Source: an uncultured virus (IMG/VR IMGVR_UViG_3300002071_000003)
Lineage: Duplodnaviria; Heunggongvirae; Uroviricota; Caudoviricetes
IMG/VR virus record: IMGVR_UViG_3300002071_000003
Span: 1 to 64,000 of that record
DNA length: 64,000 nt
Strand: one strand, 5' to 3'
Every line of letters begins with the position of its first letter. Position 1 is the first letter of the stretch. Below are positions 21,462 to 62,155 of the stretch, piece after piece. The translations under genes were made by a program, and so were the position numbers. The notes beneath the pieces were generated by a model. The model did no database searches, was not told where the DNA came from, and worked only from the letters and a program-made list of their open reading frames with translations.

Positions 21462-24400
21462 TTAACTATCTATTTTAACTGGACGTGCCTCGAATGTTAG
21501 AGTGTACTTTAGAATTGTAGAACTCTCTGGTACCTGCTTTGAAACAGCCAAAGAGTTTGCAATGGCTAAATAGTACTTATCTCTATGCTGTATATATAGC
21601 GGAGCAAATCCCCGTGCTGACCGCATAATTGTAGCTGCTAATCTAACCTTATCCTTACATGCTTCATAGGTTGGTTCCCATACAAGCATTTCTATTGTTA
21701 TTACAGTATTTTTAAGCCCTGTATCTTCAGATAATGCACCATCAATATATGGTGCAGGATATGAGTTAAGACTTACTTCATTTGAGTAGGATTCTGACTG
21801 GGCATACCCCGGCAAGTCGTGACCATTGAATCGCACAAGATATGTATAATAGTCACTAGTTGGCCCTATACCGGGGGGAATAGCCTGTCCCACTACTATA
21901 TAACCCGCTGCTAGGCCAAATTTAGGGACATTGAAGGCTATTATGCGTGCTTGGGCCTGACTAAACTTATGGTACCCTACCCAAACCATAGCTTGTCCTG
22001 TGACTTTGTATTGCTTGGATATCCGCGTTCTGGCTTGTGCCCCTACCCAATGTCTCTCAAACAACACTGCCAAGGCTTGTGCAATCGGAGAGTATACTTG
22101 TTTAATCCAAACTCGTGAATTACCCTCCGAATAATAGGTTTGCACCATATCTGCTTGTGCCTGCGCTGTTTCTAGACCTGTATTTAATAGTGCTACCGCC
22201 CCGCCAATTTCTCTATAGGTTTGCCTAATAGCTGCCTGTACTTGGGAACTAGGCCAAGGATAAATATATACAGTTGCCTGTGCGTATCTCTGTATACCTA
22301 CCCCTCTAATAAGAGCTTTTGCTTGCGCCCATTTCCAGTTCTTGGTAATGTATGCTTGGGTACTAGCAAATTGGAAGTGGCCTATATAAACTTTGGTTTG
22401 ACCATAGCTTTTACCGTGTCTCCTATCCAAAATAGTTACTAGGGCCTGTCCAGCCCATTGTGGCTTAGTAATCCATACCTTTGCATAACCTGTCTTTACA
22501 TATGTTTGCAATACCCTAGCCTTAGCCTGCCCAAATTGAGAAACATCATAAGCTATTATCCGTGCTTGCGCATTAGCAATAACAGTAGGGGGTATAATCC
22601 AAGTATTTGCTTGGTTATATGTATTAAATGTTTGTAAAATATCAACAGTGGTAAGTCCTGTTACTGTAGGTGGGATTACCCATGTATTGGATTGACTGCT
22701 CGTTTGGTACGTAGTGATAATAGTTACTAGGGCCTGTCCAAAGGCGGTAAGGCCAAAAGCGGGCCACAAGAGGGTTCCAGCTTGTCCTACAGCAAAGTGT
22801 CCAAAGGATGCTTGTGCCTGAGCAAATGTTCCAGATTTAACTGTAGCAAATCCTAACTCAAACGTTAGAATAGATACCCCATTATTTGTACCAAGATTAT
22901 CTACCAGTAATCTCCAAAGACTTGTTGTTATAGAAGGTAGCTCCCCTGCTATAGCTTTTGAAGCATCAATCGGATCGAAGATTCCTACGTTAAACGATAT
23001 ACCCTGTATAAGCTCCTGCCAAGCACCATCCCAATACTGTAAACTTACAGTAGCATCATACCTAACTGGAACTATTCGGTAATAGTTAACAGTTCTATCT
23101 TGCCCAAAGTCTATTTGTAGCCATTCATCATCCTGAATCCAGACACCGTTCTCGAAATAGGCTTGAGGACCAAAGATTTCCCACACTGGTCCGGCGTCAT
23201 TTCCATCTATAACGTTTATCGGGGTTAACTGCCCCATCGAATCTATTGCTGTAGCACCCATAGTAGTCAGGGCATAATTTGTATCCATACTCATTAACGG
23301 ATATGTTTGCTTAATCCGAGTCTGTGCTTGTCCCGTTACAACAGGGGTTAGGTACCAGAATTGTGCCTGACCAAACCCACTGTACGTTTGTGGAGGGCGC
23401 GTTGTTCGGGCTTGGAAGTGTGTGAGAATTTGACCGGCAGACAGTTCGTGATCGAAGATCGCAAATTCATCCAATCCACCATTCCATGAGTATTCGTCAT
23501 AACCTAACCACACATCTTGCCCAAAGGTTCTGGCAGTACGGGACCCTCTCACTTGCGATAGAGCTTGCGAAACCCCATTAATATAAATCTTGTTTGCTAT
23601 TGCTTCGTCTTGACCTGAGTACCATACCATTGCAACATGGAGCCATTTATTATCAAGACCTGTTGAGGCAAGACCGTAAATATCTCCACCATTTGAATTA
23701 AATCCGTAGTTGCCCCCATAGAAATAGAGACCTCCCCAAGGGGAGCCACTACTACCAAGATAATATGCCGCAACATCGTCTGTTCCGGTCCAGTACATCC
23801 AGAATTCAACAGTAATGGCACTTCCAACGGTTGTAGGAATCCATCCATAGTCGCTTCCTATTTGTTGAGCTAGTATCTTGTGTGCGTTTAATTGCCCTAC
23901 ACCCCACCCACCACCATAAGGCCAGAAGATTGATGTTCCTTGATTTGATAGGCTACCAGTTACACCAAAAGTGGCACCGCTTTTATTCCAAACAGCATCC
24001 CCTCTACCTACTAAGGTATGAAGAATACCTGCCTCTTGTCCTACTGAAACACCCAAAGCAAATCTAACAAGATTTGTTGCATCCCCATTATAGGCTTCTA
24101 CTTCTGAGAATCCAGGATCACCATTTCCATCCGAATCGCTTATTAAACGCATCCATGTAACATTTGTAGCAGGGGCAGTGTAGGTTGAAACCTCCCCACT
24201 AGTAGAAGGGAATGTTACATTATAAGAAGTACCATTGCTATATAAAATTCTACCAGACCCAAACGTATAGTCGGGCCTATTAGTTACTTTTACTGTTAGT
24301 ATGCTTTGTGGAGCACCCCAAGTTACTTGCCACCACTCACCTATAGTGTAGCCTGCACTTGCCCAACCATTATCGGTATTACCGTCTGCCGCAAATTCTG

Positions 24401-28862: not shown

Positions 28863-31800
28863 CTATCCGCCAGATATTTGACTGCCTAATCCAGCAGCAA
28901 CGGCATTACCTAGTTGTTCCATTTGTGCTTTGGTAAGAACCTGACCAGTTATGTTTAGGCTTACTGTGATTGGTCCCTGTGGACTACCCACGCTGACTCC
29001 ACTTGTCTTGTTGGTAGGAACATTTGCCAAAGCTGCAAAGTCTCCTGCTCCCACACGAATTCTACGAATGGTATCTGCCTTAGTAAGAACGTCAGTATTA
29101 GCTTTAATTGCGTCTGTTTGAGCAGCCATTCCCTTACTTAGAGCATCGGATGATAAGCCTACCTTTAGTAGAACTCTTGTGTTACCTTCCATTACTGCAA
29201 CTATGTCGTTTTTACTGGCGGCTGTTGCATTCGGGATAGCAGCCTCATACTTCGTAGCCCAAGCTATTGCTTTATTCATTGTATCCATAATATTCATCTT
29301 TGTATCTATCCACTGTTGGGGAATCTCGACCGTACTGGGAACAACTAATGCAGGAGCAGCAGCCTTAGGTGTGGTGGCAGCTTTAGATGCTTTAGTACTA
29401 ACATTCATCGGACCCCCACTCATTAACATCCCCTGAAGTGTTTTTTCGTAACTCGCTGCATCTGCTGCGGCTTTTTTACCAGCGGCTACCGCTGCTGCTT
29501 GCTTGTCCATAAGGGCCATTACGGTCGGGTCCCCGATCAGGAAGCCCGGTGAAGGATTATTCCCTGCTGCTGATCCTATCGTACTTACTTGTACCGTTAT
29601 AGTTTTAACTATATCTGGTGTATCTTTGATTAGCTGTAGAGCAGTAGATAGCTTTATAAGCATTGTTATAAGGTTATTTATTTGAGGCCCAGTCATTCCC
29701 ATCGTTCTAGCCATATCTAGTATTGCTATACCAGTATCCTCAGTCTTACCATATAATATGCTTTCCATCCCTGCTAGACTTCCAAGTTGCTCCTGTAAGA
29801 CAGGGACAATATCTGTATTTTCTTGAAAGGCAGCATCTAATTTAGCATAGCCAGTCTGCATGGCTGTTAATTGACTCAACTGTGATGCCCCCACAGATGG
29901 AGTTATTGCTTTACTAACTACTTGCGACTTTACGCTTAATATGTCCGCAGCTATTTTACCTTTTGCGGCGACTGTGGAATCATCAATAGCTTGTGCTAAT
30001 ACACTATAATCTACTGCGGCTTGATTGGTTGCTGTTCCTAAATAGTCAACTGTTGCGCCCAAGTTTCTAAGCATCATAACCTGTGTGGGTAAATCCATAT
30101 TACCAAATGCTGGACTTACTAAAGATTCGGCTGCTACTAAGTCTTTCCAAGCTTGGGTGTCTGTTTTAATTGGCTCACCATTTAACGTAGATACCGCTTT
30201 CATGTACTCCTGTACCATTTTTATTGAACTATTTGTTGTAGTTGCATCGACTCTACCGGCAGAGTCCGGCTTTATGGGTTGGGACTCTAGCTTGGTTAGC
30301 AAAGTACTTGCAAAACTAAGGTTGCCCATTACTAAGTTAACCTTATCCTGAGTCATACCGGAAACGCCAGCGATTACTTCCGTATTAAGATACGCTTTAG
30401 CCTTCGCTAAATACTCTGTTGCCGCTGTAAGATCACCAGTGGGTACCTTAGCATCAGTTAAAGCATTTGTATAGTCTTTCATATTAGAGATTTGATCTGC
30501 AAATTGAGTAGTTCCGCCCCAAAGTGAAGCGGCTGAACTCTTGTCTATAACTGTTCCGGGGTTTAATTTTAGGCCACCTGATCCATTATCTTGAAAACTA
30601 GATTTAAATGCTTCTAGCGGAGACTGTGAGGTTGCACCAGGATTCATGTGCTTTATAATATCTGCCCTTTGTGCATCAGTTAATCCTTGTATATCTCCCA
30701 AGTTATCGGTGGCCAGTTGGGGGCTGGTGCGTGCTGGCGTAGGAATAGCGTCAGGAAGACTAGATTGGAATGTGAGCGTTGGTGGCCCTTTACCTAACTC
30801 TGTTGGACTAACATACATGTTAGGATAAGCAGCCTTTAGATATAGCAATTGAAGCGTTGAATATACCTGAGAAATCTGTTCTGCGGTTGCTGTTCCTGCT
30901 GATACGGCTGCAATTAGATCGGCATACCCCGGACCCATTCCGGGGATATTTCCTCCCGATTCTGCCATAGCAGCACTAAGGTCACTATATGATTTGGTTA
31001 GATCATCATTGGCAACAGATAACTTAGCGGAAACATCCGCTAAATTGGTTTCAGCATCTATTTTAGCATACATAGAAGCTGTATCTTTAGCTGATCCTAA
31101 CTGACCAACCTGTGCTATTAGACTATTTTGCTCATCTATTAACAAGGTAGTATTAAGTTTAGCCGTAGTGTACGCTGTAGCGGCCGATAGAACAGCATCC
31201 GAAGTACCGTTTAAAGCATCCGAAGCCTTTTTGGAATCTCCTGCAAATAGTGCTAATGCCCCACCCGCTGCTATTAGTGCAATTCCAAGTGGAGATAGAA
31301 CACCAGTTGCCGTAAGTGCCGCACCAGTCATTGCGATACCAGCAGCGCCTATTCCTCCACCAATTGTTTGAAGCATATTTCCGCCTACTGCTTGTACTGC
31401 TGTTGCACCAATCATTGCAGGCATTATTGCTTTAGATGCCATACCTACTAATCCTGATACTGAGAATCCTGCACCTGTATTTTTTGTTGCTAACTGCGCT
31501 GCGGTTCTTGTTCCTGCTGCTGCGCCCATTGCTCCACCAGCAAGAAAGCCTTCTGTATCCATAGCTGCTGCTGCAACAGCTTTTTGAGTTACACCCCACT
31601 CTGCTGTCTTTGCTATTATGCCTGTTAGCATTCCACTAAGGCCATTATATGTACTTGTTATTAAGCTTACTGCTATTTGGGCTATCTTAATAGCCGCTAT
31701 AAAGGCAACAACTTTTACTGCGCCCTCTATCCATCCCGAAGGAATGCCCTGAATAACATTAATAAGTTTTATTATTGCAGATGAAACACTTGTAATAGCA

Positions 31801-33818
31801 TCCCTAATAGCAGGGCCAAAGGTATCGAACATAAGGGAATCTAACTTAGTCTTTAGTTGGACTATTTTAGCACTGTTTGTTTCAAGTATCTTAGCATTTG
31901 CAAGCAAGGCATTGTTTTGAGCATTGGCAGCAATTGTCGTTGAATCCGCTATTGGTGCAAAGTTTGATAGAATAGCTGCTAAATCAGGTGCTCGTCTAGG
32001 TCCACCGGCCATAGCCTTTTCAACTGCTTTTACTTGTCCCGCAGGTATTTCTCCTGTTTGTATAGCGGTATAAACATCCTGTAGAATAGATAGGAAGTCT
32101 CTAGCATTTCCCTGTGCATCCTTTACCTGAATCTTAAATTTATCTAGCATCTTAATAGATGCAGTAGAGTCAATTGATCCAACAAGGTTCTTGAAAGAAA
32201 CCGCAACTTCTGATGCAGACTTGCCTGTTACCTGACCTAATACCTGTAGGAAGCCAATCATTTGATCAAGGCTTAATCCTGCTGTTGAAGCAGTTTCACC
32301 CATTACTGATAGGCCCTTCATAATTTCTGCAATAGCGTTGGCCTGACCACTAGCAACCGCTGAAACTTTATTTAGAACGTTTATCATATCATCAGCATGT
32401 AAGCCTAACTGCTTCATAGCAGCAGTTAAATCGTCTGTCGCTGCAACAGTATCGACACCAGCAATATTAGTATAAACACCTACAGCAAACATCAAGTTAT
32501 TCATTTGAGCACGCCATTCATCAGTTGATTGCCCGGCTCTCTTGGTTGCTAAGGCTATATCGTCAACAGAAGACAACATCTCATTTAATGGGGTTGCTGT
32601 TTCATATGCCACTTGTGCTACGGTATCAAAATATGTTCTAGCTTGTGCGGTACTCATTTGGGAAGTAATTCCAAGCTTCTGAACTAACTGATCTATCAGG
32701 TTGATATTTTTAAGGCCACCCATTGCAGCACCTAATGCACCGATAACAAAGGTTGTAGCAATAGTCCACTCAATAACCTTTACAAAGTCTCTCTGTATCT
32801 GAGCTAAGAAGTTGCTCATACCAGATAACTGACCACCAAATCTTGTAATAACTTGTCCATTAGCCCCAATTTCTGCTCCGAAACTCTTTACCTTTCCTGC
32901 CGTATCTGTGAACGATCCACCAACCTTAGTTACGTTTCTAACTAAGTCTTCATATGGTTGGTTGAAGTTGGCAGTGCCGGAAAGGTTTCCCATTTGTAAG
33001 CCAGCCTTTTGCAGCATGGTGGATAGTTGCGGAGAGGCTGCAAGAGTGGATGAAACATTTGCAGGGGTAGGTGCGGGATTAGCAGCCGTTATATATGCAG
33101 ACTTCATCTGTGCTTCTGCTAACCTTATTTTTTCTGCTTGCGCTTTAATAGCATCAGCTTGTTCTGTACCACCAACCTCGATTGCTCCTGCAACTTTTGC
33201 TGCCGATTCTGTCTGTAAGGCAACTAATTGAGCAGTTTCGGCATTTTGGAAGGTTGTAAGTCCTCCCACTCTGCCTTTCATCGCTGCGGTAACTTCTTTT
33301 CCACTTGCTTGATAAGCGGCTACCTCAGCTTTAGAGCCTGCTAATATACTGGCTCTTGCAGTGGTTGATTGCTGAAGTGCAGCAATCTGTGACTGGTATG
33401 GCGCAGCAGTCGATGCAGCAACAGTTTTCTGCACTCTTTCCATTTCTAGAGAAGCGTCAGAAACACCTTTCATTGCCCCAATTACTTTTTCACTGTTTAC
33501 AGTCGCAGTTTGTACCCAACCAGTGGACATGAAATCAAATACTCCCGCCTTAGTAGTTGGAAGATTTATTCCTGTCTCTTGAAAAACTTTGGCCGACTTG
33601 TTAAGGGCATCAAACTCTACTCTAGCACTTCTGATTGTGGGTCCAAGAGCCTGTACCTGACTACCTAAACCACTAATCCCCATTCCCGCCCCAAACATCG
33701 ATTTAGCTGAAGCCTGTAAAGCCTCATTCTGTGTTCTAACAAACGTAGCAACATCGCCCACGCTAGACAATACCGCTGATGCTCCTGCTGATGTTAACCT
33801 AAACGCAATATCAGGCAC
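28863..33818 (-). CDS. tape measure protein
   Basis: 1651 aa, Ala/Gly/Thr-rich, TP901-type core (GLSLDQMIG...GKSASEVAVSFK); follows the tail chaperones. Confidence 0.92.
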   Translation of the reverse strand: MPDIAFRLTSAGASAVLSSVGDVATFVRTQNEALQASAKSMFGAGMGISGLGSQVQALGPTIRSARVEFDALNKSAKVFQETGINLPTTKAGVFDFMSTGWVQTATVNSEKVIGAMKGVSDASLEMERVQKTVAASTAAPYQSQIAALQQSTTARASILAGSKAEVAAYQASGKEVTAAMKGRVGGLTTFQNAETAQLVALQTESAAKVAGAIEVGGTEQADAIKAQAEKIRLAEAQMKSAYITAANPAPTPANVSSTLAASPQLSTMLQKAGLQMGNLSGTANFNQPYEDLVRNVTKVGGSFTDTAGKVKSFGAEIGANGQVITRFGGQLSGMSNFLAQIQRDFVKVIEWTIATTFVIGALGAAMGGLKNINLIDQLVQKLGITSQMSTAQARTYFDTVAQVAYETATPLNEMLSSVDDIALATKRAGQSTDEWRAQMNNLMFAVGVYTNIAGVDTVAATDDLTAAMKQLGLHADDMINVLNKVSAVASGQANAIAEIMKGLSVMGETASTAGLSLDQMIGFLQVLGQVTGKSASEVAVSFKNLVGSIDSTASIKMLDKFKIQVKDAQGNARDFLSILQDVYTAIQTGEIPAGQVKAVEKAMAGGPRRAPDLAAILSNFAPIADSTTIAANAQNNALLANAKILETNSAKIVQLKTKLDSLMFDTFGPAIRDAITSVSSAIIKLINVIQGIPSGWIEGAVKVVAFIAAIKIAQIAVSLITSTYNGLSGMLTGIIAKTAEWGVTQKAVAAAAMDTEGFLAGGAMGAAAGTRTAAQLATKNTGAGFSVSGLVGMASKAIMPAMIGATAVQAVGGNMLQTIGGGIGAAGIAMTGAALTATGVLSPLGIALIAAGGALALFAGDSKKASDALNGTSDAVLSAATAYTTAKLNTTLLIDEQNSLIAQVGQLGSAKDTASMYAKIDAETNLADVSAKLSVANDDLTKSYSDLSAAMAESGGNIPGMGPGYADLIAAVSAGTATAEQISQVYSTLQLLYLKAAYPNMYVSPTELGKGPPTLTFQSSLPDAIPTPARTSPQLATDNLGDIQGLTDAQRADIIKHMNPGATSQSPLEAFKSSFQDNGSGGLKLNPGTVIDKSSAASLWGGTTQFADQISNMKDYTNALTDAKVPTGDLTAATEYLAKAKAYLNTEVIAGVSGMTQDKVNLVMGNLSFASTLLTKLESQPIKPDSAGRVDATTTNSSIKMVQEYMKAVSTLNGEPIKTDTQAWKDLVAAESLVSPAFGNMDLPTQVMMLRNLGATVDYLGTATNQAAVDYSVLAQAIDDSTVAAKGKIAADILSVKSQVVSKAITPSVGASQLSQLTAMQTGYAKLDAAFQENTDIVPVLQEQLGSLAGMESILYGKTEDTGIAILDMARTMGMTGPQINNLITMLIKLSTALQLIKDTPDIVKTITVQVSTIGSAAGNNPSPGFLIGDPTVMALMDKQAAAVAAGKKAAADAASYEKTLQGMLMSGGPMNVSTKASKAATTPKAAAPALVVPSTVEIPQQWIDTKMNIMDTMNKAIAWATKYEAAIPNATAASKNDIVAVMEGNTRVLLKVGLSSDALSKGMAAQTDAIKANTDVLTKADTIRRIRVGAGDFAALANVPTNKTSGVSVGSPQGPITVSLNITGQVLTKAQMEQLGNAVAAGLGSQISGG

Positions 33819-39060: not shown

Positions 39061-39714
39061 CTATATTTTTCCAGTGGCGAGTTTATCGCCCCATTTTGAC
39101 ATGAAGTACTCGTGCTTATTGCTCCATATACCGAGTCTTGCAGAGGTTTGTCCAACCAAGTGTATGTACTCAGCGGTGGGACAGGATACAACGTCATACC
39201 CTTTCTCTCTAGCTCTATAGCAATAATCAATTTCTTCCCGATAGCCCATACCAAAGTTCTCATCGAACAGTCCTATATCATTGATTACCTGCCGTTTTAT
39301 ATACATGCAGGAACCCTCTACAGACTTTTGAGTAACAACTTCGGTAACATTGCTTTTATCTTCCCCGTAATATTTATGGGCAGTATTACCGTCAGGTGCT
39401 ATGAATATCCCATAATTATTTACGTGCTGCCCGTCAGGAGAGATAGACTTTCCCCCAACAATTCCAATTTTGGGATCGGAATAAGCTAGGGTTCTCATCT
39501 CTTGCACAATATCAGAAAGAATAATAGTATCATCGTTTAATACAATAACATCCGTTAAAGTCGAAGACATTAGTTCGTTACATGCTTTCAACCATCCAAT
39601 ATCGTTTTTATAGACTAGAATGCGCGGATTTATGACTTGCTGCATTATCGAATTAACACAGTTAGTAACTAGGGGCGCTCCAAAATATGTTGGAACTAGA
39701 ATTGTAACATCCAT
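39061..39714 (-). CDS. GT2 glycosyltransferase
   Basis: ILVPTY, GWLKACN, LNDD, GSCMYI, FDENFGMGYREEIDYCYRA. Confidence 0.9.
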   Translation of the reverse strand: MDVTILVPTYFGAPLVTNCVNSIMQQVINPRILVYKNDIGWLKACNELMSSTLTDVIVLNDDTIILSDIVQEMRTLAYSDPKIGIVGGKSISPDGQHVNNYGIFIAPDGNTAHKYYGEDKSNVTEVVTQKSVEGSCMYIKRQVINDIGLFDENFGMGYREEIDYCYRAREKGYDVVSCPTAEYIHLVGQTSARLGIWSNKHEYFMSKWGDKLATGKI

Positions 39715-48562: not shown

Positions 48563-49423
48563 TTATTTACCTTTTCGATTAAATCTAGAATGACCACGTT
48601 TACTATATCTACACCCTACTTCTACTAGCGCCCTCATCTGATCGGGCTTTCTTGTAGCTCTATGATAAGCCATTGCTAAGTTACTATTAGGTTGCGACCC
48701 TTTCTGGCCTTTCCAAATTCGGGTCTTATAACTATCCCCAATAACAGGATGCCAGAGATGAATTATATCAGTATTAACAGTCTTGTGTTTTCCATATAGG
48801 GTATCTAGTGCCCTAAGTAATGCTACATCCTCCCCGCCCCATCCTTTGAATCGTTCATCAAAGCATCCACCTACCGCGTCAAGCGCCTCTCTAGGAAAGA
48901 TCATAATCATTGCGCCATAACGATGACCATAATTACTCTGTTTACCATTTTCAACATCTTCCATCAATGGGGGTGAAGGTAATCTAAGAGGGTGCTCTGG
49001 ATCAGAAGCTATAATCTTTTTACTCGCTTCCCTTTTTAAACGGTATAAATGACGGTATGGAACATACCATAGATGGTCTTGCATCTCTTCAAGAATTCGG
49101 TTAGCACATCGTTCAATAACTCTTCCCGATATATAGGCATCGGCATCAAGAATTACTAGAACTTTTCCAGTTGATTTTCTAGCTGCTTGATTTAATGCTT
49201 CGCCTTTACAGAATACTTTATTGTGGGATTCGCCAACTATAATCTCTGCATCTGGAAGTTCGTGCCTCCAATATTTAAGAAGCCATTTAAATTCGGCTTT
49301 TCTCTCAGCACTTTTAGTAGTAAAGGGTATAAGTAAACTTATCTTGGGACGTTCATAATGCTTATGGGGTTCCTCATGACGCCAGTCCCCAAACCTAAAA
49401 AACTCTAAAAATCTTCTAAACAT
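48563..49423 (-). CDS. GT2 glycosyltransferase with a GT7-type C-terminus
   Basis: SLLIPF, KGEALNQAA, ILDAD, FDERFKGWGGED and HLWH. Confidence 0.9.
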   Translation of the reverse strand: MFRRFLEFFRFGDWRHEEPHKHYERPKISLLIPFTTKSAERKAEFKWLLKYWRHELPDAEIIVGESHNKVFCKGEALNQAARKSTGKVLVILDADAYISGRVIERCANRILEEMQDHLWYVPYRHLYRLKREASKKIIASDPEHPLRLPSPPLMEDVENGKQSNYGHRYGAMIMIFPREALDAVGGCFDERFKGWGGEDVALLRALDTLYGKHKTVNTDIIHLWHPVIGDSYKTRIWKGQKGSQPNSNLAMAYHRATRKPDQMRALVEVGCRYSKRGHSRFNRKGK

Positions 49424-49424
49424 C

Positions 49425-50150
49425 CTAACCAAGTATCCCTTTAACTTCTTCCATAACATCAAACAACTCATACTCCTTTTCCATTACTATATTCCTATCT
49501 ACCTCTTGTGTCAAGCCTATTTCTAGGGGCATATTCAAGGAGGCTGAGTAGTCATACCATTTAAATAAGCCACCCTCTTGATGTGCATGGCTTAATATTC
49601 TAGGAGCAATTTCAATTCTTCTCGGTATACCAAAGGCGTCTGCTAAAATAATTCCGTGTAAAGATGAACTAACTATCTTTTTACATTCCCCTATCTCTCT
49701 TATAACATCTAGAGGATCGTCTGCAACGCGGATGATCTTAGGATTAAACTTAATAAATCTAGGATCATGTTCTAATACATTATCTGTCCAATGTGGAACA
49801 AGTCCAAGGTTATATTTCTTTTCTCCCCTTGGTACTAGCTCATCTGCTAATAAACCGATATCAGCTAGAACAAAATTTCCCTTTAGCCCCTTTGCCGAAA
49901 GGGGTCCGCGTGCTGCTAGAATTTTAGCATTTGGAAAGGTACGTTCTGTTTTCTCGTGTAACTTTCCGGCCCCTGCAATAACCCCTTCCCACTCATTGGG
50001 AAGTCTGTCCATTACAGAACCAGCCATAACCAATTCTGCATACTCAGGTTCAGACCACTCGGAATCTAAATGTGCAAATCTAGTTAATAATAAGGAGGTT
50101 AAAAGATCGCCAAAATTTTTTCTATTCTTCCAGTAATATACCTTTACCAT
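49425..50150 (-). CDS. polysaccharide pyruvyltransferase family protein
   Basis: NFGDLL, GSV, RGPLS, D.GLL, VPHW and SSSLHGIILADAFGIP. Confidence 0.9.
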   Translation of the reverse strand: MVKVYYWKNRKNFGDLLTSLLLTRFAHLDSEWSEPEYAELVMAGSVMDRLPNEWEGVIAGAGKLHEKTERTFPNAKILAARGPLSAKGLKGNFVLADIGLLADELVPRGEKKYNLGLVPHWTDNVLEHDPRFIKFNPKIIRVADDPLDVIREIGECKKIVSSSLHGIILADAFGIPRRIEIAPRILSHAHQEGGLFKWYDYSASLNMPLEIGLTQEVDRNIVMEKEYELFDVMEEVKGILG

Positions 50151-53021: not shown

Positions 53022-53026
53022 ATATA

Positions 53027-53997: not shown

Positions 53998-54549
53998 TTA
54001 TTCTGTAACCCTTAATATCTCAAAATCAAAGCATCTTTGTGTCACTCTTATAAAGCTTTCAGGATATCCATCCTGTGGACCAAGTGCTGGAAACGTATCA
54101 TTCATGATATCTGCTACAGTAGTACCCATGTACTTGATATCCTTGATTTCAAATCCCCGGCACACTTCCAAATACTGGTGCATGATATCAACAGTAAAAC
54201 CTGTCTTATGAAACTCTCCCTCATGACGCTGATTACCAAAGAGAATATCCATACTCCAATCAGTTTGCTGGTGCTTTAACCACCAAGCACAGGCCCATTC
54301 TAAATCAGGAACAACTATCTCTAACTTGCCCCCTACTTTTAATACCCGTTTCCACTCACGTAAAGTGGGCACAATCTCAAACTTAGATACGTGCTCTAGT
54401 GCATTATCACAATATATAACATCAACTTCCCCATCTTTATAGGGTAAATCCCACATAAGAGCATTTACATCTGCTTCGGTAAATGCATCAATACCTATAA
54501 AAGAGGAATCTGATGATTTACCCCCGCTTCCTATGTCTAACTTGATCAT
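53998..54549 (-). CDS. class I SAM-dependent methyltransferase (Methyltransf_11-like)
   Basis: LDIGSG, LEHV, EWKRVLKVGG..VPD. Confidence 0.9.
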   Translation of the reverse strand: MIKLDIGSGGKSSDSSFIGIDAFTEADVNALMWDLPYKDGEVDVIYCDNALEHVSKFEIVPTLREWKRVLKVGGKLEIVVPDLEWACAWWLKHQQTDWSMDILFGNQRHEGEFHKTGFTVDIMHQYLEVCRGFEIKDIKYMGTTVADIMNDTFPALGPQDGYPESFIRVTQRCFDFEILRVTE

Positions 54550-54967: not shown

Positions 54968-55015
54968 CTCACTTTTATCTCTTATTTTGAAGCGCACGAT
55001 AACCTCCAAGAGCGC

Positions 55016-56176
55016 CTATGCGCTTACGTTGTTCACGACGGTGTTGGTCATGCCNGCCTTNTCGNCATAGCCACCCGCCGTGTTTCCGTAGTACATATTG
55101 CCGATGACCAAATTATCGTTGGTCTGCGTGCCGCTGTATGAGCCAAGGTAGATGCCATACTGCTGCGTGGGCGAGTCCTGTGTATCGTAACACTGGTTGT
55201 TGCTCAGGATGTTGCGGACGCTTGCGCCCGGAGCGGAGTCGATGTAAATGCCGCTAAACGCCCCGGCGCTAGACCTGGAGTTCTGCTTGACGATGTTCAT
55301 GGCGAGCACGTTGCCAACCATCAACTCCCCGAAATACATCCCGTGCTTGTCGCAATCTTCAACATGGTTAGCGATAAGGGTGCAACCCTTCAACCCCAAG
55401 CCCGTAATGCCGAATTCGGACGCATTGTAGATGTGGTTTTCGTGGATGCGGTGCCCGAAGCCCATGTACAATTCGATGCCATACTTCATAAACGCGCCGA
55501 TATCGTTGTTCTTGGCGGTCAGGGAGTTTGTGTTCCCGGTGCAGATGCCGCAATAAGAGAAACGGTTGTCTACAACCCTAAGTTCCTCGCCGTATTCGAA
55601 GTAGATACCCCGCTTGTTTGTCGTCCCGGTCGAGCCCACGATATCGTTGTCGTGGAACGACGACCGCCAGAGATAGGCGAGGTGAAACACGTCATGGTCG
55701 CCCGTGACGCCGCGCTGGTCGATCCGCAGATGATCGACTTCGATGCCGGTGTTGCCGTTCGTAAGGTCGGAGTTCTCAAACATGTTGAAATCCAGCCCGC
55801 CGCCCGCCGCGATATCCGCCCCGAAGTACCCGCTCGGGTCGCCGTAGGAACCCTGCTCGCTGGTATGCATCGGCCGACCGGGACCTGTCAGGCGGACGAA
55901 ATTGGGGATGTTCAACGTGGCCGTGGTGATATAACACCCGCGTGGGAGCCAGACCGTACCGCCCCGATGGTTGGCATCCACAGCCGCTCCGGCCGCCGTG
56001 ATCGCCGCCTGAATGGCCGTCGTCTGGTCAGTCGCGTCGCCGGGGGCTCCATAGTCGGCCACGTTGAAGTAGCCGAGGGAGTTGCCGACGTGGGCAGCAT
56101 TCCATTCAGAAGGTAAAACTTCGCTCGTATCTCCACCATCTGACTTAGCAGAAACCTTAGCATGTGTAATTGGCAT
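55016..56176 (-). CDS. adaptor-fused pectate-lyase-like right-handed beta-helix (tailspike/depolymerase-like), high-GC body
   Basis: FNVADYGA.GD..DQTTAIQAAI...GGTVWLPRG.Y pectate_lyase_3 start and N..I..N..GI repeats; low-GC N-terminal MPITHAKVS..PSEWNAAH. Confidence 0.85.
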   Translation of the reverse strand: MPITHAKVSAKSDGGDTSEVLPSEWNAAHVGNSLGYFNVADYGAPGDATDQTTAIQAAITAAGAAVDANHRGGTVWLPRGCYITTATLNIPNFVRLTGPGRPMHTSEQGSYGDPSGYFGADIAAGGGLDFNMFENSDLTNGNTGIEVDHLRIDQRGVTGDHDVFHLAYLWRSSFHDNDIVGSTGTTNKRGIYFEYGEELRVVDNRFSYCGICTGNTNSLTAKNNDIGAFMKYGIELYMGFGHRIHENHIYNASEFGITGLGLKGCTLIANHVEDCDKHGMYFGELMVGNVLAMNIVKQNSRSSAGAFSGIYIDSAPGASVRNILSNNQCYDTQDSPTQQYGIYLGSYSGTQTNDNLVIGNMYYGNTAGGYXXKXGMTNTVVNNVSA

Positions 56177-56189: not shown

Positions 56190-56486
56190 CTAATAAACTC
56201 TATCTATTACTTCAAAGCCATTTGTCTGAGCTATTTCACGCCCCATTCCGTCTATTCCCCATCCCTCATACTCATACCAGCCGATTGTATTGGGGTGATA
56301 TATATAGGATAAATATCCTGAGTTTGTAGTTAAGTCTGTACCGGATACTGTTACGATATTTCCTTGGGGACTCTTAACACTTAACTTATAATAGATAGGA
56401 ACCATAGGCTGCTCGTTTAAGTCAAAGAACTCCATACGGATTTCTGGTGCTCCACCAAGTACATATACGTTTGGATTTATTGCCAT
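56190..56486 (-). CDS. small Ig/BppU-like virion adaptor protein
   Basis: F.D....P....VKSP.G...G...Y.Y.P...G.Y.Y pattern. Confidence 0.6.
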   Translation of the reverse strand: MAINPNVYVLGGAPEIRMEFFDLNEQPMVPIYYKLSVKSPQGNIVTVSGTDLTTNSGYLSYIYHPNTIGWYEYEGWGIDGMGREIAQTNGFEVIDRVY

Positions 56487-56497
56487 TCTATCACCCC

Positions 56498-59400
56498 TTA
56501 GTAATCTCTATCACTGAGTACTAATAACAGAGTTCTCTCTGATAATCTAAGTATAATTTCCTGTGGTTCTGTTTCTACTATCTTTATTACTATATCATCT
56601 AATCTTTCCTGTGGAACTATTAGATCACTTAATACTAATCCTAATGCCACGTCACTTATTATTAGTGTCTTTAGTATGTATTCAAATATTATGTAAACTT
56701 GGGCCTGTCCATATCCAGCAGACTTGCTGAATACTGCCTGAGCCTGTGCATAGCCTTCATAAGTTGCCTGAACCCAAACAGCAGATTGGCCGTATACCCA
56801 ATCGTAGGTTTGAACCAATGTTTGTGTAGATGCTGCCTGATTAATACCTGACAGTATAACGCTGGCTTCGGCCTGTCCGTATATATTAATAGTTGTCTTA
56901 ACTAATCCTTGGGCGTTAGCTTGTGTCTGATTAATATACAGTCCAAGGATTTGAGTCTGTGCTTGTGCATAACCGCTAGAAACTTGCTTAATTGCTACGC
57001 CACTGTTAGCATATCCCATACCAACAAGGTAAATCTTAGCCTGAGCCTGAGCAACAGCAGGGAACGTTGATCTTATGTGAACGCTGACCTGTGCATAAAC
57101 CTGGCTTATTTGTTTGATTTGTGCTATTGCCTGTGAATATGTCTTATATGTAGTTTTTACTTGCGCCTGTGCTTGTGCAGATGCTTGATAATTCTGCTCT
57201 ATGCTGGTTCGTGCATTAGCACATACTGTGTATGACTGTTTAATATCAGCCAATACCTGTGCTGGCTGAACACTTGATCCGCCGATCCACGCAGATGCTT
57301 GTGTAAATACTAAACTCTTAGCCTTTATATCAGTTTGTGACTGCGTAAATATCTGGCTAATAGCCTTAATTTTAGTCTGCGCCTGTGCATAAGCTGTGTA
57401 GGTAGTTTCTATATCTACCTTTGCTTGTGCAAATACATTATAGGTATGCTCTATATCAGTCTGAGATTGAGCATAAACTGTCTGACCCCAATCTTTAATA
57501 TCGGCCTGTGATTGACCATATCCCTTAACAGCAATGCCCTTAATCTTTGCTTGGATACTTGCTACAACTTGCTTTGTTGTTGTAACTCTTACCCTTGCCT
57601 GAGCAGAAACGTTTTTGCCCCAATCTAGGATACCTGCTTGGCTTTGTGCATAAGTAGTTTGTCCCCAATCCTTAACATCGGCTTGTACCTGAGCATATGT
57701 TGTAATACCAAGAGTCTTTACTCTTGCTTGTGCTTGCGCTAGTCCTAATGCAGAACCACCAATCCACACTGTAGCCTGTGCGTAATGTTGTATAATACTC
57801 TTTATGTATGCTTGTACCTGAGCGTATGCTTTAATTCCAGATACGATATACGCCTGCGTTTGGGCACTAACAACTATATTACTTACTTCAATATAGCCAG
57901 TAGCCTGTCCATAAGATTGATAACTATTTTGGACATTTACCATAGATTGCGCAAATGTATAATATGTTTGACTTATATCAGTTTGTGACTGAGCATATGC
58001 CTGATAAGTTTGTGTAATATCAGCATTAGATTGTGCATAAGACTGATACTGAGTCAAAATAGCTGCCTGTGCTTGACCGCTGCAAACTATATCATTTATG
58101 ACCACTAACGCAGTAGTTTGCCCTGTTTGAGCCGCTGTAACCTTTATATCTGCTTCTGCCTGTCCGTATACCTGTAGACCTGACAGTTGAATGTAGGCAT
58201 TTACTTGCGCCCCAACTAACGAGGATTGCTTGATACTTGTCTGTGCTTGGGACACGGAATAATAACTCTTTTTGATATCTGCCATTGCTTGCGCAACTGT
58301 TTGATATTTTTGATTTACCCATGCTTGTGCTTGAGCTACTACTTGGAAGGTTCTCTTAACATCAGTTTGTGCCTGCGCCCATTGAGGATAATTGAAGGCA
58401 TAAATCTTTACTTGCGCCTGAGCCGATACAGTGGTTCCACTAAAGCGGATATTTGTTATAGCCTGAGCAAATTGTGAAACATTAAATCCAACGATACGAG
58501 AGTTTGTCTGTGCCTGTACTAAGTATGTAGTCTTAACGTCCGCTTGTGCCTGACCAAGTGCTACCGTATTCGTAAACTTGATCCAAGTAGCTGCCTGTGC
58601 ATATACGCGACTTGTAACCTTGATATCGGTTTGGGATAGTCCAGACTGCATATAGTAGGACTTAATATCCGTTTGTGCGTTTGCAGATACCCTACTCTTT
58701 TGTAGGATAGTAGCTAACGCTTGACCGAAGACCTGTTCTGTTACTTTAATGTCAGTTTGAGCAATAGCAAATCCTTGCCCGATTTGCTTTATATCGGCCT
58801 GTGGTTGTGCATATTCCTGTCTACCGGATAAGATAATTTGTGCTTGTGCCTGAGAATTGGCAAATGAAACTGCCTTGATATCTGTTTGGCCCTGTGCAAA
58901 GGCAGTAGATTTAGCCTTAACGTCTACTTGGGTTTGAGCATAAACTGTTTGGCCCCAATTTTTAATGTCGGCCTGAGATTGTGCAAATCCGCCAACACCA
59001 GTACCCTTAATATTTGTAGCTGCCTGAGCATAAACTTGAACACCAAAAGCGTTTATATCAACTTGTGCTTGGGCATATCCAAGAGATGTGGCCTTTATAT
59101 TAACCTGTGTTTGTGCAGATACTAGTGAAGTCTGCTTAATATCAGTCTGAGTTTGAGCAAAGCCTTGACTAAATTGCTTGATATTGGCCTGTACTTGGGC
59201 ATAAGATAATCTACCAGAAAGAATGATTTGGGCATTAGCCTGACCATACCCTATGCCAACTTGCTTAATATCTGCCTGTGTTTGACCGTAAGTTGTTTGC
59301 CCCCAGTCTAGGATATTAGCATTAGATTGGGCATAAATAGTTGTAGTAGTTGCAGCACCCACTATCTGTACTTGTGCTTGGGCGCAAGAAACTAGCCCAA

Positions 59401-62155
59401 CAGTTTTAATCCAAGCAGTAGATTGGGCATAAGACTGTCTACTAGAAAGGATTATCTGTGATTGTACCTGAGCAAATCCTGTAGAAGTAACCTCAATATC
59501 TGTCTGAGTCTGAGCGTATACTGTATTATTGATAACCTTTATCCAAGAATTACCTTGCGCCCAAACCTGACTTGCTACCTTTACATCGGCTTGTGCATTT
59601 ACACTTGCTGTATAAGTTTGCGTGATATCTGTCTGAGTGTCTGCATATCCTTGGTAGGTCTGCTTTATATCTGTTTGCGCCTGAGCGTAAGCGCGTGAAG
59701 CAGCCTTGATATCCACTTGAGACTGTGCAAATACTTGACTGAACTGCTTTACGTCTACTTGGGCCTGTGCAAAGGAAGGTGTATAGCTCTTAATATCAGC
59801 ACAAGTTTGCCCCAACGTTGAGTAAGTAGCCTTAATCTTTGACTGTGTTTGGCCCCAAACTGTAATACTAGTTACCCTGATCCAAGAATTAGGCTGTGCA
59901 TACCCAGTAGAAGTTTGTTTAATATCAGTTTGTACCTGAGCAGATACCAAGGATACTTGCTTGATATCAGACTGTGCTTGAGCGTATGTAACAGCATACT
60001 GCTTTACATCAGTTTGCGTTTGGACAAACGCTTTCTGTACTGTTTTGATATCAGTCTGTGTCTGAGCTTCTGCTTCAATTAGTGTTATCTTTATCCATGC
60101 ATTAACTTGGGCAAATTGCTGTTTAGTAGATAACGCTGCTACAACCTGTGTCTGTGCCTGAGCATTTGCCCGATAGACTGTCTTAATATCAGTTTGGGCT
60201 TGTCCATAGACCTTAGATATAGCCTTAACATCTACATCTACTTGAGTTTGTGCAAAAGCGCCTTCGCAGTAGTCTGTCTGGAAGGCACCATTTTGGAAGG
60301 CATCACTTTGAAATGCACCAGAAATACAAAGTGGATATGTCTGTTTTATATCTGCCTGAGACTGCCCAAAGGTCTGAATGGATGTTCCTCTAATATTAAC
60401 CATAGACTGCGCATAAAACTGTACAGCAAAGGCATTGATCCTAGTTAATGTCTGTCCATAAGTTGTCTGCCCCGTATCCTTGATCCAAGCATTGGCTTGT
60501 GCAAATACTTGAATGCCCCAATCTTTTATGTCCGCTTGTGTCTGTGCATAAACTGTTTGTCCCCAGTCCTTAATATCTGACTGAGTTTGTCCATAAGTAT
60601 AACGTGTAGTCGCAGTAGCAATGGTAATCTGTGCCTGTACCTGAGCAAATGTTGGACTTTGTATTCCACCTATGGCCCCTGCCGTGTAGTGGGCGGCTAC
60701 TGCGGTCGATGATAGGGCCGTGTCGTAGATCGCAACCTCGTCTACGACCCCGTTCATCGGGTTTGCGCCAGCTACCTGAGCCGCGATTGTGACGGCCGTC
60801 TTGGACGGGAAGGTCCTCGCGACGCTGGTGCTATAGGTGCATTCCGCCCCGTCGAAATACATGTGCCGGGCGGCGCCATTCTTGGTGACAACGATGTGAT
60901 GGAAGAACGTCGTATCCATCCAGAAGCCCGCCACGGTATCGAGGCAGGACCCGGTGTATCCGAGGTCGAACACCAGACTGTTGTTGTACGAATAGATTTG
61001 CGCGCCGTGGTCATAGGACAGATAGACGTGGGTTCCACTGCTCGTGGAGTCACGCTTGACCCACATCTCCAGCGTGAACGTGTCCACGATCGCTGGCAGG
61101 GTCGCGACGGTTGCATACTGGGTTGATGCAGCCGCGAACCGGACCGCCGTATCCGAATCGCCAGTTAGGGCTCCGGCCACTCCGAGGGTCGGTGAGTTGA
61201 CATAGGTTCCGGTGGCCGTGGCGATGGCATCGGCCATGCTGGTCCCCGACAACTCACCTTGGCGCCAGTAGGCGATTGGTGAGTCTGCGAGGACCGTGGC
61301 AGAATAAGACGTACCGCCTCTTGGATATGTTTGTTTTATATCTGCTTGGGATTGGGCATAAGTCGTAATATTCCAATCTTTTATGTCTGATTGTGCTTGT
61401 GCTTCTACTTGTCTAGTAGTGGCCACTGCTACTACCGTTGCTTGTGCTTGTGCCCTTACTTCCATATTTTCTAACAGGGTTATCCAAGCAATAGCCCAGG
61501 TAGCAGATGTTCCTAAGGTAACGTTATAGGTTTGGGCGCCAGGTGCAGTAAGTATTTTTGCTTGTGAAGATATACTTTGCCCCGAGGTTGTTGTTCCATT
61601 TGTAGCAGTTTGTGCTGTAGTCCAAGAGCCGTTTGCAGTATCAGAATCATTAGTAAAGGTTTGAGCAGTGCCATACTGATCACCAACTGCACCAATTACT
61701 ATCTGAGCCTTATCAATAGAACTTGTTGTAATAGTTGGTGCAGTTGAGGAACCTGTTGCTGTAGCCCCTGTTTCATAAGCAACATTATTTCCTGCCGCGC
61801 TATCAACTTCTGTTAAGGCCCAAGCTGTAGACCCGACCGTCTTACCTCCGTAAGCTACAGTAATAGTATTTCCTGTAGTTAATGCCCCAACAGACATATT
61901 GGAAGTGAAAATACGCAGTACATTACCAGCACTAGCAGCACCCGGATCATTTAATGCATTCTGTCTAGGTGTCCAAGTATTACCTACAGAGTCGCTTATT
62001 GCTGAATAGGGATCAGCACCACTCGATCCTGCGTTGTCATAACTAATTTCTAGAACAGCCCATGACCCTGCTGTAAAGTTTGATGCCGGTGTTACAACTG
62101 CGGAAGTACCGCTACCTATCCCACCGCTACCCCTATTCGCTGTTGTTAATGCCAT
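56498..62155 (-). CDS. giant QAQ-repeat protein with a high-GC LamG insert, an AFQ motif and an L.LSD C-terminal tail
   Basis: Roughly 90 (eye estimate) 14-15-aa (Y/F)AQxQ(A/T)xI repeats; LamG motifs AYWR.GE, FTLEMWV, HHIVVT, VDEVAIY. Confidence 0.85.
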   Translation of the reverse strand: MALTTANRGSGGIGSGTSAVVTPASNFTAGSWAVLEISYDNAGSSGADPYSAISDSVGNTWTPRQNALNDPGAASAGNVLRIFTSNMSVGALTTGNTITVAYGGKTVGSTAWALTEVDSAAGNNVAYETGATATGSSTAPTITTSSIDKAQIVIGAVGDQYGTAQTFTNDSDTANGSWTTAQTATNGTTTSGQSISSQAKILTAPGAQTYNVTLGTSATWAIAWITLLENMEVRAQAQATVVAVATTRQVEAQAQSDIKDWNITTYAQSQADIKQTYPRGGTSYSATVLADSPIAYWRQGELSGTSMADAIATATGTYVNSPTLGVAGALTGDSDTAVRFAAASTQYATVATLPAIVDTFTLEMWVKRDSTSSGTHVYLSYDHGAQIYSYNNSLVFDLGYTGSCLDTVAGFWMDTTFFHHIVVTKNGAARHMYFDGAECTYSTSVARTFPSKTAVTIAAQVAGANPMNGVVDEVAIYDTALSSTAVAAHYTAGAIGGIQSPTFAQVQAQITIATATTRYTYGQTQSDIKDWGQTVYAQTQADIKDWGIQVFAQANAWIKDTGQTTYGQTLTRINAFAVQFYAQSMVNIRGTSIQTFGQSQADIKQTYPLCISGAFQSDAFQNGAFQTDYCEGAFAQTQVDVDVKAISKVYGQAQTDIKTVYRANAQAQTQVVAALSTKQQFAQVNAWIKITLIEAEAQTQTDIKTVQKAFVQTQTDVKQYAVTYAQAQSDIKQVSLVSAQVQTDIKQTSTGYAQPNSWIRVTSITVWGQTQSKIKATYSTLGQTCADIKSYTPSFAQAQVDVKQFSQVFAQSQVDIKAASRAYAQAQTDIKQTYQGYADTQTDITQTYTASVNAQADVKVASQVWAQGNSWIKVINNTVYAQTQTDIEVTSTGFAQVQSQIILSSRQSYAQSTAWIKTVGLVSCAQAQVQIVGAATTTTIYAQSNANILDWGQTTYGQTQADIKQVGIGYGQANAQIILSGRLSYAQVQANIKQFSQGFAQTQTDIKQTSLVSAQTQVNIKATSLGYAQAQVDINAFGVQVYAQAATNIKGTGVGGFAQSQADIKNWGQTVYAQTQVDVKAKSTAFAQGQTDIKAVSFANSQAQAQIILSGRQEYAQPQADIKQIGQGFAIAQTDIKVTEQVFGQALATILQKSRVSANAQTDIKSYYMQSGLSQTDIKVTSRVYAQAATWIKFTNTVALGQAQADVKTTYLVQAQTNSRIVGFNVSQFAQAITNIRFSGTTVSAQAQVKIYAFNYPQWAQAQTDVKRTFQVVAQAQAWVNQKYQTVAQAMADIKKSYYSVSQAQTSIKQSSLVGAQVNAYIQLSGLQVYGQAEADIKVTAAQTGQTTALVVINDIVCSGQAQAAILTQYQSYAQSNADITQTYQAYAQSQTDISQTYYTFAQSMVNVQNSYQSYGQATGYIEVSNIVVSAQTQAYIVSGIKAYAQVQAYIKSIIQHYAQATVWIGGSALGLAQAQARVKTLGITTYAQVQADVKDWGQTTYAQSQAGILDWGKNVSAQARVRVTTTKQVVASIQAKIKGIAVKGYGQSQADIKDWGQTVYAQSQTDIEHTYNVFAQAKVDIETTYTAYAQAQTKIKAISQIFTQSQTDIKAKSLVFTQASAWIGGSSVQPAQVLADIKQSYTVCANARTSIEQNYQASAQAQAQVKTTYKTYSQAIAQIKQISQVYAQVSVHIRSTFPAVAQAQAKIYLVGMGYANSGVAIKQVSSGYAQAQTQILGLYINQTQANAQGLVKTTINIYGQAEASVILSGINQAASTQTLVQTYDWVYGQSAVWVQATYEGYAQAQAVFSKSAGYGQAQVYIIFEYILKTLIISDVALGLVLSDLIVPQERLDDIVIKIVETEPQEIILRLSERTLLLVLSDRDY

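Follow-up and report, generated by a model that had tools for sequence, protein, structure and literature searches.

A window of 64,000 nucleotides (nt), the whole stretch of DNA analyzed here (positions 1 to 64,000 of the IMG/VR record IMGVR_UViG_3300002071_000003, an uncultured tailed virus of the Caudoviricetes), carries two giant genes, gene A (P0001) and gene B (P0002), whose products consist of long arrays of a short repeat interrupted by non-repeat domains. Our analysis reveals that part of these domains is held in a recurrent socket, which is defined at the level of the protein: P-[domain]-(G)P takes the place of turn position 13 in an otherwise ordinary repeat, resulting in the junction IK-QTY-P...(G)P-T-[FY]AQ. 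In one of the sockets of gene B, the core of the LamG domain is a recent replacement by foreign DNA with a high content of guanine and cytosine (GC). Taking the evidence together, we consider it probable that both genes code for giant fibre- or adhesin-like proteins and that the contents of their sockets are exchanged by recombination.

The repeat arrays, here termed the shaft, are composed of units of 14 residues with the consensus [YF][AG]-Q-A-Q-A-[DQ]-I-K / Q-T-Y-x-x. A homologue search with gene B returned 174 proteins at E ≤ 0.001, 120 of them listed, and the family set used throughout comprises those 72 of 125 examined proteins that contain at least 10 repeat anchors each; many of the family proteins are encoded on contigs of 60–130 kb. 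With a position-specific scoring matrix (PSSM) of the 9-residue core, [YF][AG]QAQA[DQ]IK, 1370 cores were recovered in 20 family proteins compared to 32 in shuffled copies. The spacing from core to core is mostly 14 residues (2582 cases), followed by 15 (510), 13 (197) and 12 (121), and the linker between cores is dominated by Q (827), T (1495) and Y (1393) at positions 10–12, then by N/Q/R and finally by G/V/A. IKQTY and FAQ thus represent plain repeat consensus, which explains why the three inserts of the window described next share them, and only the proline at the entry and the (G)PT at the exit are distinctive.

An earlier note, made from the letters of this DNA and its open reading frames (ORFs), had reported three inserts that begin right after IKQTYP and return to the repeat at TFAQ or AFAQ. 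All three motifs are present at residue 1313 of the gene A protein and at residues 273 and 603 of the gene B protein, each is followed by a non-repeat stretch, and the repeat resumes at TFAQ (A residue 1475, B residue 502) or AFAQ (B residue 633). The assignment of the first gene B insert as a LamG domain proved correct, since it matches Laminin_G_3 (PF13385) well above the gathering score (66.7 bits compared to 27.6, residues 71–213 of a 228-residue insert; 60.5 bits when the whole gene B protein is used), and its GC-rich character is borne out by a GC content of 0.59 over positions 60623–61335 compared to a window mean of 0.425. For the insert of gene A, the position given in the note is right, but the designation as a discoidin domain is backed solely by a sub-threshold match to F5_F8_type_C (PF00754; 20.4 bits compared to a cut-off of 28.2, E 5.9e-4), and the equivalent insert of the related locus L023 reaches 19.9 bits to F5/8 type C; we thus refer to it as discoidin-like. 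The remaining inserts of gene A comprise one with Laminin_G_3, one with DUF7402/F5_F8 plus Laminin_G_3, one with a weak PA14 match and one of a superfamily without Pfam name, in line with the Pfam matches of the complete protein (Laminin_G_3 twice, DUF7402/F5_F8_type_C and weak PA14), and it is the insert at residues 943–1054 that passes the cut-off as DUF7402/F5_F8_type_C. The second socket of gene B harbors a short peptide in which three AFQ-containing hexads are placed between two cysteines and which is followed by AFAQ at 60248–60259. This AFQ peptide is the sole insert of intermediate length among the 51 xTYP junctions of the family, and it may form a loop closed by a disulfide or be what is left of a lost domain.

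The socket is not confined to the window. Across the 72 homologues we counted 3338 ordinary junctions between neighboring cores and 246 gaps of at least 60 residues, each of which opens directly after one core and closes directly before the next. The entry motif [QAT][TI]YP precedes 46 of the 246 inserts compared to 4 of the 3338 ordinary junctions, and the exit motif PT[YF][AG]Q follows 30 of the 246 inserts, 26 of which also possess the entry motif, again compared to 4 of 3338. Most telling is the residue after QTY, which is a proline at 40 of 40 insert junctions but at only 3 of 521 ordinary ones. Conversely, junctions of the type xTYP lead into 46 large inserts and one short insert, and four are empty (e.g. 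QTYPQ joined to FAQAQ). Hence, the defined socket proposed in the note holds as a protein junction of the entire family, QTY-P...(G)P-T-[FY]AQ, but not as a DNA site, as detailed below. A search for empty orthologous sites, in which the flanks of inserts were compared to ordinary junctions, was discarded, since its best candidates (0.76, 0.70 and 0.70) matched several repeats equally well.

The contents of the sockets are diverse. Socket inserts are spread over 18 of 97 sequence communities, and profile–profile comparison of the 16 communities with at least three members (120 pairs) merges communities 0, 2, 3, 9 and 11 into a superfamily without Pfam name and communities 1, 6, 7, 13, 14 and 15 into a LamG superfamily, while community 8 and the discoidin-like community 10 appear unrelated to one another and to either superfamily (probabilities 0–11%). 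Inserts in sockets belong to all four groups (15, 11, 5 and 3 inserts), and a further 12 fall into smaller communities (11 singletons and one pair). Judged by these profiles, sockets host at least four unrelated domain classes. Both superfamilies are also found behind junctions that are not sockets, and the family protein P0006 carries four inserts, all entered through QTYP, two of which were placed in different sequence clusters.

Exchange at a socket is documented once, in the first socket of gene B. Among 44 inserts in IMG/VR loci, only the LamG insert of gene B deviates in composition, with a GC content of 0.596 and a GC content at third codon positions (GC3) of 0.706, whereas the other 43 inserts (GC 0.32–0.50, GC3 0.14–0.44) resemble their shafts. 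A fit with two change points delimits the foreign tract with support intervals at residues 285–288 and 490–495. The linkers on either side of it, RGGTSYS and IGGIQS, are native in composition, and between the last GC-rich codon and the TTT of the exit motif eight codons ending in A or T follow each other (ATA GGT GGA ATA CAA AGT CCA ACA), which argues that the resident linkers were kept. As the N-side linker is similar to that of a LamG domain of the same family in P0006, QTYPLSEGGSYSSTVL, we infer that the core of a resident LamG domain was replaced. Contigs from the peat metagenome runs X3, X4 and X5 bridge both joints of the tract with zero differences, and an IMG/VR contig has the same sequence. 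Since independent contigs cross both joints, the tract is not an assembly artefact.

Signs of mosaicism are also apparent among relatives of the two genes. P0089 and P0101 part company at the end of an insert: the roughly 2200 residues downstream are nearly the same in both, while those upstream have diverged. Between P0045 and P0069, identity is complete in the stretch of about 28 residues leading to QTYP and falls to about 35% beyond. Residues 600–1270 of P0043 contain an internal duplication of about 320 residues with flanks that are 86% and 83% identical and inserts that are 33% identical; this pattern could stem from a replaced module, from gene conversion acting on the flanks or from a domain that diverges fast. 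In total, five pairs combine a flank of at least 82% identity with an insert of about 30% identity, mostly at non-socket junctions. These mosaic cases fit joints that are kept at domain boundaries and also fast divergence of the domains.

Such fast divergence is at the heart of the strongest alternative, in which no exchange took place: an ancestral module comprising repeat, P-linker, domain and PT-linker would have been duplicated within and between these genes, its domains would have diverged in place, in part to the point where they are no longer recognizable, and the common junction would reflect common descent. Most socket inserts are indeed of similar size (about 210–240 residues), 32 of the 46 are joined in one single-linkage cluster, some communities are nearly always found in sockets, flank pairs with more than 80% identity enclose inserts of the same superfamily that are about 30% identical, which fast divergence could bring about, and the content of the socket is constant across the lineage of gene A. 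Against this stands that the Pfam matches of the LamG and of the discoidin-like domain are to different families, that the profile probabilities between the four socket-using groups remain at 0–11%, that each of the two large superfamilies is found in sockets as well as behind other junctions and, in particular, that a LamG core with a GC3 of 0.76 inside native linkers is not producible by divergence in place. We therefore regard an origin without any exchange as unlikely.

Considerably less probable still is a socket at the DNA level, the proposal of the earlier note, according to which the identical words of 11–14 nt that flank the discoidin-like and the LamG insert act as micro-homology arms through which cassettes are exchanged between genes and phages. 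The words as such are real: in the window, GGATATGTTTG occurs solely at 23299 and 61323 and CCTGAGCAAATGTT solely at 22817 and 60640, i.e. at the same relative positions of two inserts, and the word GGATATGTCTG of the third socket solely at 60333. They are largely made of repeat codons, as the 11-mer at 23299–23309 corresponds to the codons of QTY plus CC of the proline codon and the 14-mer at 22817–22830 to the four codons of TFAQ plus one base on either side. To judge them, we left the two protein sequences unchanged and permuted the synonymous codons of each gene (300 shuffles). Genes A and B have 154 maximal exact matches of at least 10 nt in common, 71 of at least 11 nt, 30 of at least 12 nt and 5 of at least 14 nt, compared to shuffle expectations of 45.5 ± 6.6 (at least 11 nt), 18.8 ± 4.1 (at least 12 nt) and 3.5 ± 1.8 (at least 14 nt). 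The observed number of 14-mers is reached by 27% of the shuffles and that of the words of at least 11 nt by none; this mild excess of short words is distributed over the entire repeat without concentration at the inserts. The longest exact word, with 17 nt (15.7 ± 1.6 in shuffles), is located elsewhere. Of the 455 tetrapeptides common to both proteins, 22 are identical at the DNA level. From codon usage, the three QTY codons coincide with a P of 0.10 and the four TFAQ codons with a P of 0.03; in the shuffles, the full 11-mer coincides in 13%, the full 14-mer in 1.3% and both in none of 300, so that finding both at one pair is nominally rare. The proposal consequently falls on the ground that the note itself had named as refuting it, since equally long words are shared by arbitrary repeat copies about as often as synonymous shuffling predicts. 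Where copies of a coding repeat have amino acids and codon bias in common, identical words of 11–14 nt are to be expected and should not be taken for recombination sites.

Neither do the surroundings of the words speak for homology arms. The words do not extend, since the adjacent codons for I, K and P differ between genes A and B, and the third socket differs with CAG in its word and AFAQ at its exit. The flanking repeat units of the two genes are 58% (entry) and 67% (exit) identical, which lies within the null range of all 42 × 92 A-versus-B repeat pairs (quantiles 0.946 and 0.991, maxima 0.72 and 0.76). The identity of 81% between the two socket entry units of gene B was likewise dismissed as a special feature, as it merely ties the maximum of 4186 within-gene pairs, a value reached by four pairs of gene B, one of which includes a non-socket repeat. 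A degenerate pattern, Q-x4-IKQTYP, retrieved 65 IMG/VR loci, with repeat-rich ORFs (at least 10 cores) in 8 contigs including that of the window. In the 14 sockets of these contigs, all synonymous sites of IKQTYP and PTFAQ vary (ATT/ATC/ATA, AAG/AAA, CAG/CAA, ACT/ACC/ACA, TAT/TAC and CCA/CCG/CCT are all used), which indicates that the constraint is structural, on the protein, and not that of a DNA recombination site. The junction thereby differs from DNA-level cassette systems of the integron attC-like, shufflon-like or micro-homology type in that it is not conserved as DNA, and a dedicated recombinase was not among the Pfam matches of the 39 window ORFs of at least 150 residues (the window covers 64 of 117 kb). 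Finally, the sole datable exchange does not use the words: the foreign tract stops 23 nt and 21 nt before reaching them, 6–7 codons short of the motifs, and a fit with the joints placed on the motifs is worse by 3.4 (N side), 7.3 (C side) or, for both together, 10.3 log-likelihood units. What agrees with a DNA-level socket, besides the positions and the nominal rarity of the words, is that the protein identity of P0045 and P0069 is 100% as far as QTYP and, directly from there on, about 35%. Cassette swapping by short homology at identical flanks is, in our view, not sustained, with words of this length about as common as the shuffles predict, the synonymous sites variable and the foreign joints off the motifs.

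That the pattern is trivial altogether, with consensus motifs, common P/PT linker residues and a high-GC segment introduced as an assembly chimera, is hardly credible: IKQTY and FAQ are consensus and the window stems from a metagenome assembly with three N at a contig-end join, but proline follows QTY at every insert junction that begins with QTY and at less than one in a hundred such ordinary junctions (40/40 compared to 3/521), entry and exit motif come together in 26 inserts while 200 inserts do without both or one of them, and the high-GC tract is in frame, domain-bounded and bridged identically by the separately assembled contigs of X3, X4 and X5, with which the IMG/VR contig agrees.

Returning to the protein-level socket whose contents are exchanged by recombination, a number of observations weigh against it. 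The socket is not universal, as 200 of the 246 large inserts are located at other junctions. Communities 3, 8 and 10 are nearly always found in sockets and communities 0 and 4–7 almost never or never, which leaves room for modules that are inherited together with their linkers. We looked within the family for closely related proteins whose matching sockets hold different domain classes and found none, and the only pairs with conserved flanks on both sides and different inserts were the internal pair of P0043 and near-identical proteins. In the lineage of gene A the socket is invariant, with the same discoidin-like domain in all four other copies (P0089, P0093, P0101 and L023). Contigs from four peat runs display no deletion, replacement or alternative joint at the sockets, with rare variants being invisible in contigs and stretches without coverage in X4 and X5 carrying no meaning, and the listed 'joints' in these contigs are repeat artefacts only. 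A high-GC donor was not found: the best of 22,459 matches in a library of 1.84 billion representatives has about 43% identity, of the ten top matches looked up two have a source name, the sole informative one being Solirubrobacterales (41%), and scans of genome contigs with the alignment of the tailspike-like protein and with P0004, two further high-GC modules treated below, gave no match. Both identical words at the pair of the gene A socket and gene B socket 1 are nominally improbable (about 0.002); we attribute this to the post hoc choice of the pair from three sockets, although the two socket units may still have a common origin. Moreover, the fibre- or adhesin-like nature of the two proteins, their placement in the virion and the binding of sugars must be considered putative.

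The same caution applies to the fold of the shaft. AlphaFold2 was run on ten repeats of gene B with an in-register alignment of 24 non-overlapping windows, since 150 overlapping windows had been staggered by MAFFT, and predicted ten strands of about 11 residues with turns of 2–4 residues between them; the predicted local distance difference test score (pLDDT) of 80.6 and the predicted template modelling score (pTM) of 0.71 depend on this shallow 24-row alignment and on a single chain. An attempt on residues 240–700 of gene B without alignment was unusable (pLDDT 31.7). Foldseek found nothing in the PDB at E ≤ 0.001 (best 7.8e-3). An exhaustive structural aligner placed the CsgA fibril 8enq_A first (Z 12.6, root-mean-square deviation (rmsd) 7.4 over 108 residues, 7% identity), followed by the Rhagium antifreeze protein (Z 12.1) and the beta-helix of SufD (Z 8.5, rmsd 3.3 over 137 residues), where by the aligner's own caution a Z below about 13 for repeats may reflect a common arrangement only. 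With this in mind, the modelled shaft looks like a flat beta-solenoid-like structure or a beta-sandwich of the curli type, the core of which could plausibly be lined by the alternating Ala/Ile positions. The coordinates of the sockets, the genes and the further modules are compiled in Table 1.

Table 1. Positions of the giant genes, their sockets and other features discussed in the text (window coordinates)
Feature	Position	Strand	Description
Gene A (P0001)	21462..27251	-	1929 aa; repeat stretches broken by six long non-repeat inserts, plus C-terminal domain of ~160 aa
Gene A socket exit TFAQ	22818..22829	-	residues 1475-1478; T is repeat position 14, FAQ opens the next core
Gene A socket insert, discoidin-like	22830..23297	-	residues 1319-1474; native composition, GC 0.41, GC3 0.30
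Gene A socket entry IKQTYP	23298..23315	-	residues 1313-1318
P0004	27395..28102	-	235 aa; N-terminal 37 residues native (GC3 0.22), residues 38-235 foreign (GC3 0.825)
Tape-measure gene (PhageMin_Tail)	28863..33818		1651-aa protein
Tailspike-like gene (P0005/P0271)	55016..56176	-	N-terminal 27 residues native, residues 28-383 foreign (GC3 0.787); predicted pectate-lyase-type beta-helix
Gene B (P0002)	56498..62155	-	1885 aa; N-terminal domain of ~230 aa, ~92 repeat cores (at the PSSM threshold used), two socket inserts, short C-terminal tail
Ten-repeat model query	58814..59248	-	gene B residues 970-1114
AFQ mini-insert, gene B socket 2	60260..60331	-	residues 609-632, LCISGAFQSDAFQNGAFQTDYCEG; GC3 0.36, native
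Gene B socket 2 entry IKQTYP	60332..60349	-	residues 603-608
Gene B socket 1 exit (P)TFAQ	60641..60652	-	residues 502-505
Gene B socket 1 insert	60653..61321	-	residues 279-501; LamG/concanavalin-like domain with linkers
Foreign tract in gene B socket 1	60674..61300	-	residues 286-494; GC3 0.761, compared to 0.286 in the rest of the gene
Gene B socket 1 entry IKQTYP	61322..61339	-	residues 273-278

The window belongs to an uncultivated phage from peat with a genome of at least 117 kb. While the phage genome record that covers the window measures 75.9 kb, an IMG/VR contig of 117,070 nt has the same sequence as the window, and its ends meet in the window near position 55,000. These ends overlap by about 116 nt, so that the genome looks circular or terminally redundant with the window spanning the join; three N bases at 55055–55065, within the tailspike-like gene, lie close to this join, and locus L001 supplies real bases in their place. 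The sequence of the phage, without differences in the region compared, is present in several peat runs (X1–X5, with different study codes), which argues that the phage is recurrent in this habitat, although the runs may be one sampling campaign.

All large ORFs of the window except two are encoded on the minus strand. Gene A is part of the tail module, three genes downstream of the tape-measure gene, and its C-terminal 163 residues (21465–21953) match DNA_circ_N (Mu gp43-like) weakly (E 0.012, 16.5 bits compared to a cut-off of 21). Given its position after the tape-measure gene, this C-terminus could anchor the giant protein to the tail tip. PHROGs contain no family for gene A or gene B (E ≤ 0.001), no Pfam or PHROG model matches the shaft repeat, neither blastn of gene B nor tblastn of the shaft found a match in 50,697 GenBank phage records, and the putative terminase has one match among GenBank phages, with 23% identity.

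Several neighboring genes deserve mention in their own right. Glycosyltransferases of the families GT1, GT2 and GT4, a polysaccharide pyruvyl transferase and methyltransferases are scattered among the structural genes (14989–16191, 39061–39714, 48563–50150, 53998–54549 and 62652–63896). Such an interspersed set of glycosyltransferases is unusual, and virion proteins or a host surface polymer might be modified by it. At 4539–5021 a protein of the Mom family is encoded (37.3 bits, cut-off 27.1) that adjoins proteins resembling a deoxynucleoside monophosphate (dNMP) kinase and a deoxycytidine monophosphate (dCMP) deaminase, a combination that suggests modification of DNA bases.

In the genome, with its GC content of 42.5%, the LamG tract is one of three high-GC modules in all, the other two being P0004 and the tailspike-like gene P0005. 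The native N-termini of P0004 and P0005 have a GC3 of about 0.22–0.26. P0004 has no Pfam or PHROG match. P0005 matches Pect-lyase_RHGA_epim (64.2 bits), NosD and Beta_helix in Pfam, and a word-indexed search recovered relatives of this tailspike at 53–63% identity. In this, the two genes follow the classical pattern of an anchor with a swapped tip. Antisense to the tailspike-like gene, an ORF of 257 residues is found on the plus strand (55343–56116), which in all likelihood arises from the GC-rich composition and does not represent a gene. The coincidence of an internal domain replacement with two joints and two tip replacements, all of high GC content, hints at a recent change in binding target.

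If the protein-level socket with exchangeable contents is the right reading, each 14-residue unit would form one beta-strand and a tight turn, and globular domains of the sugar-binding type (LamG/concanavalin-like, discoidin-like, PA14-like and several without a name) would be displayed from turns of the shaft, with the socket prolines acting as linkers that let the chain exit and rejoin it. The domain content would turn over by recombination, and selection would retain those products that are joined at domain or linker boundaries; as the repeat period of 42 nt is a multiple of three, in-register exchanges stay in frame. The latest event would be the replacement of the LamG core in gene B socket 1 from a high-GC donor with retention of the resident linkers, and two other genes of the receptor-binding type would have acquired high-GC C-terminal modules behind their native N-terminal anchors. 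One may go further and speculate that the QTY-P...GP-T turn is a natural plug-in site and that this lineage of soil and peat phages repeatedly swaps lectin-type domains, even from compositionally distant donors; we put this forward as a tentative idea that may well prove too bold. If true, the giant proteins would be multivalent, re-programmable adhesin scaffolds that drive changes in host range, and the combination of scaffold and socket would constitute a new and transferable principle of display.

Phages change their hosts mainly through the modular exchange of receptor-binding parts, which is well described for C-terminal tips behind N-terminal anchors and for the loops of gp38. The latter, the adhesins of T2- and T6-type phages, contain hypervariable segments between conserved glycine-rich motifs, and the authors consider what is gained in evolution when a conserved core carries determinants that are readily interchanged (Trojet et al. 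2011, PMC3157838). Of the systems compared here, gp38 is the functionally nearest analogue, since a conserved scaffold motif brackets interchangeable segments of specificity; it differs in being a small protein with short variable loops, whereas in genes A and B domains of 160–240 residues are inserted in a shaft of about 100 units. The two are also not related in sequence, going by the PHROG and tblastn results above. 'Evolved' Dit and Tal proteins of siphophage baseplates carry inserted carbohydrate-binding modules (Lavelle et al. 2020, PMC7533335). The likeness consists of carbohydrate-binding modules in tail proteins that are encoded near the tape-measure gene, which recalls the location of gene A and its LamG, discoidin-like and PA14-like inserts. 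In contrast, neither Pfam nor PHROGs gave a match of genes A and B to a Dit or Tal family, and their proteins hold several inserts each, in the turns of a 14-residue repeat and with a common proline-bracketed junction.

Tailspikes and tail fibres are known to swap receptor-binding modules behind conserved N-terminal anchors (e.g. PMC10408124). P0004 and P0005, with 37 and 27 native N-terminal residues, are of this kind, but the module of gene B differs from them in being internal and bounded by two in-frame joints. The predicted likeness of the shaft to curli CsgA and other flat beta-solenoids, with one short strand per unit, tight turns and small core residues, would be structural only: sequence identity to CsgA and the other structural matches is 7–13%, the rmsd is high, CsgA has no inserted domains and amyloid behavior is not implied. 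The repeat units of CsgA are also longer than the 14-residue unit.

A full-text search of the literature returned no description of this repeat family or its junction. The same modular logic hence appears in an undescribed protein family, with up to six or more whole domains per protein placed in the turns of a 14-residue repeat. Many of these domains have a junction signature in common that is readily spotted in the sequence, and it offers a simple rule for finding domain boundaries in these giant ORFs. A comparable design is an engineered one, a beta-solenoid scaffold that is a designed left-handed triangular prism with domains inserted at its vertices (PMC7890094). Both would display globular domains from solenoid turns, carbohydrate-binding modules and enzymes in the case of the engineered scaffold; the shaft of genes A and B, with its predicted fold, is natural and points to a natural scaffold for the display of folded domains.

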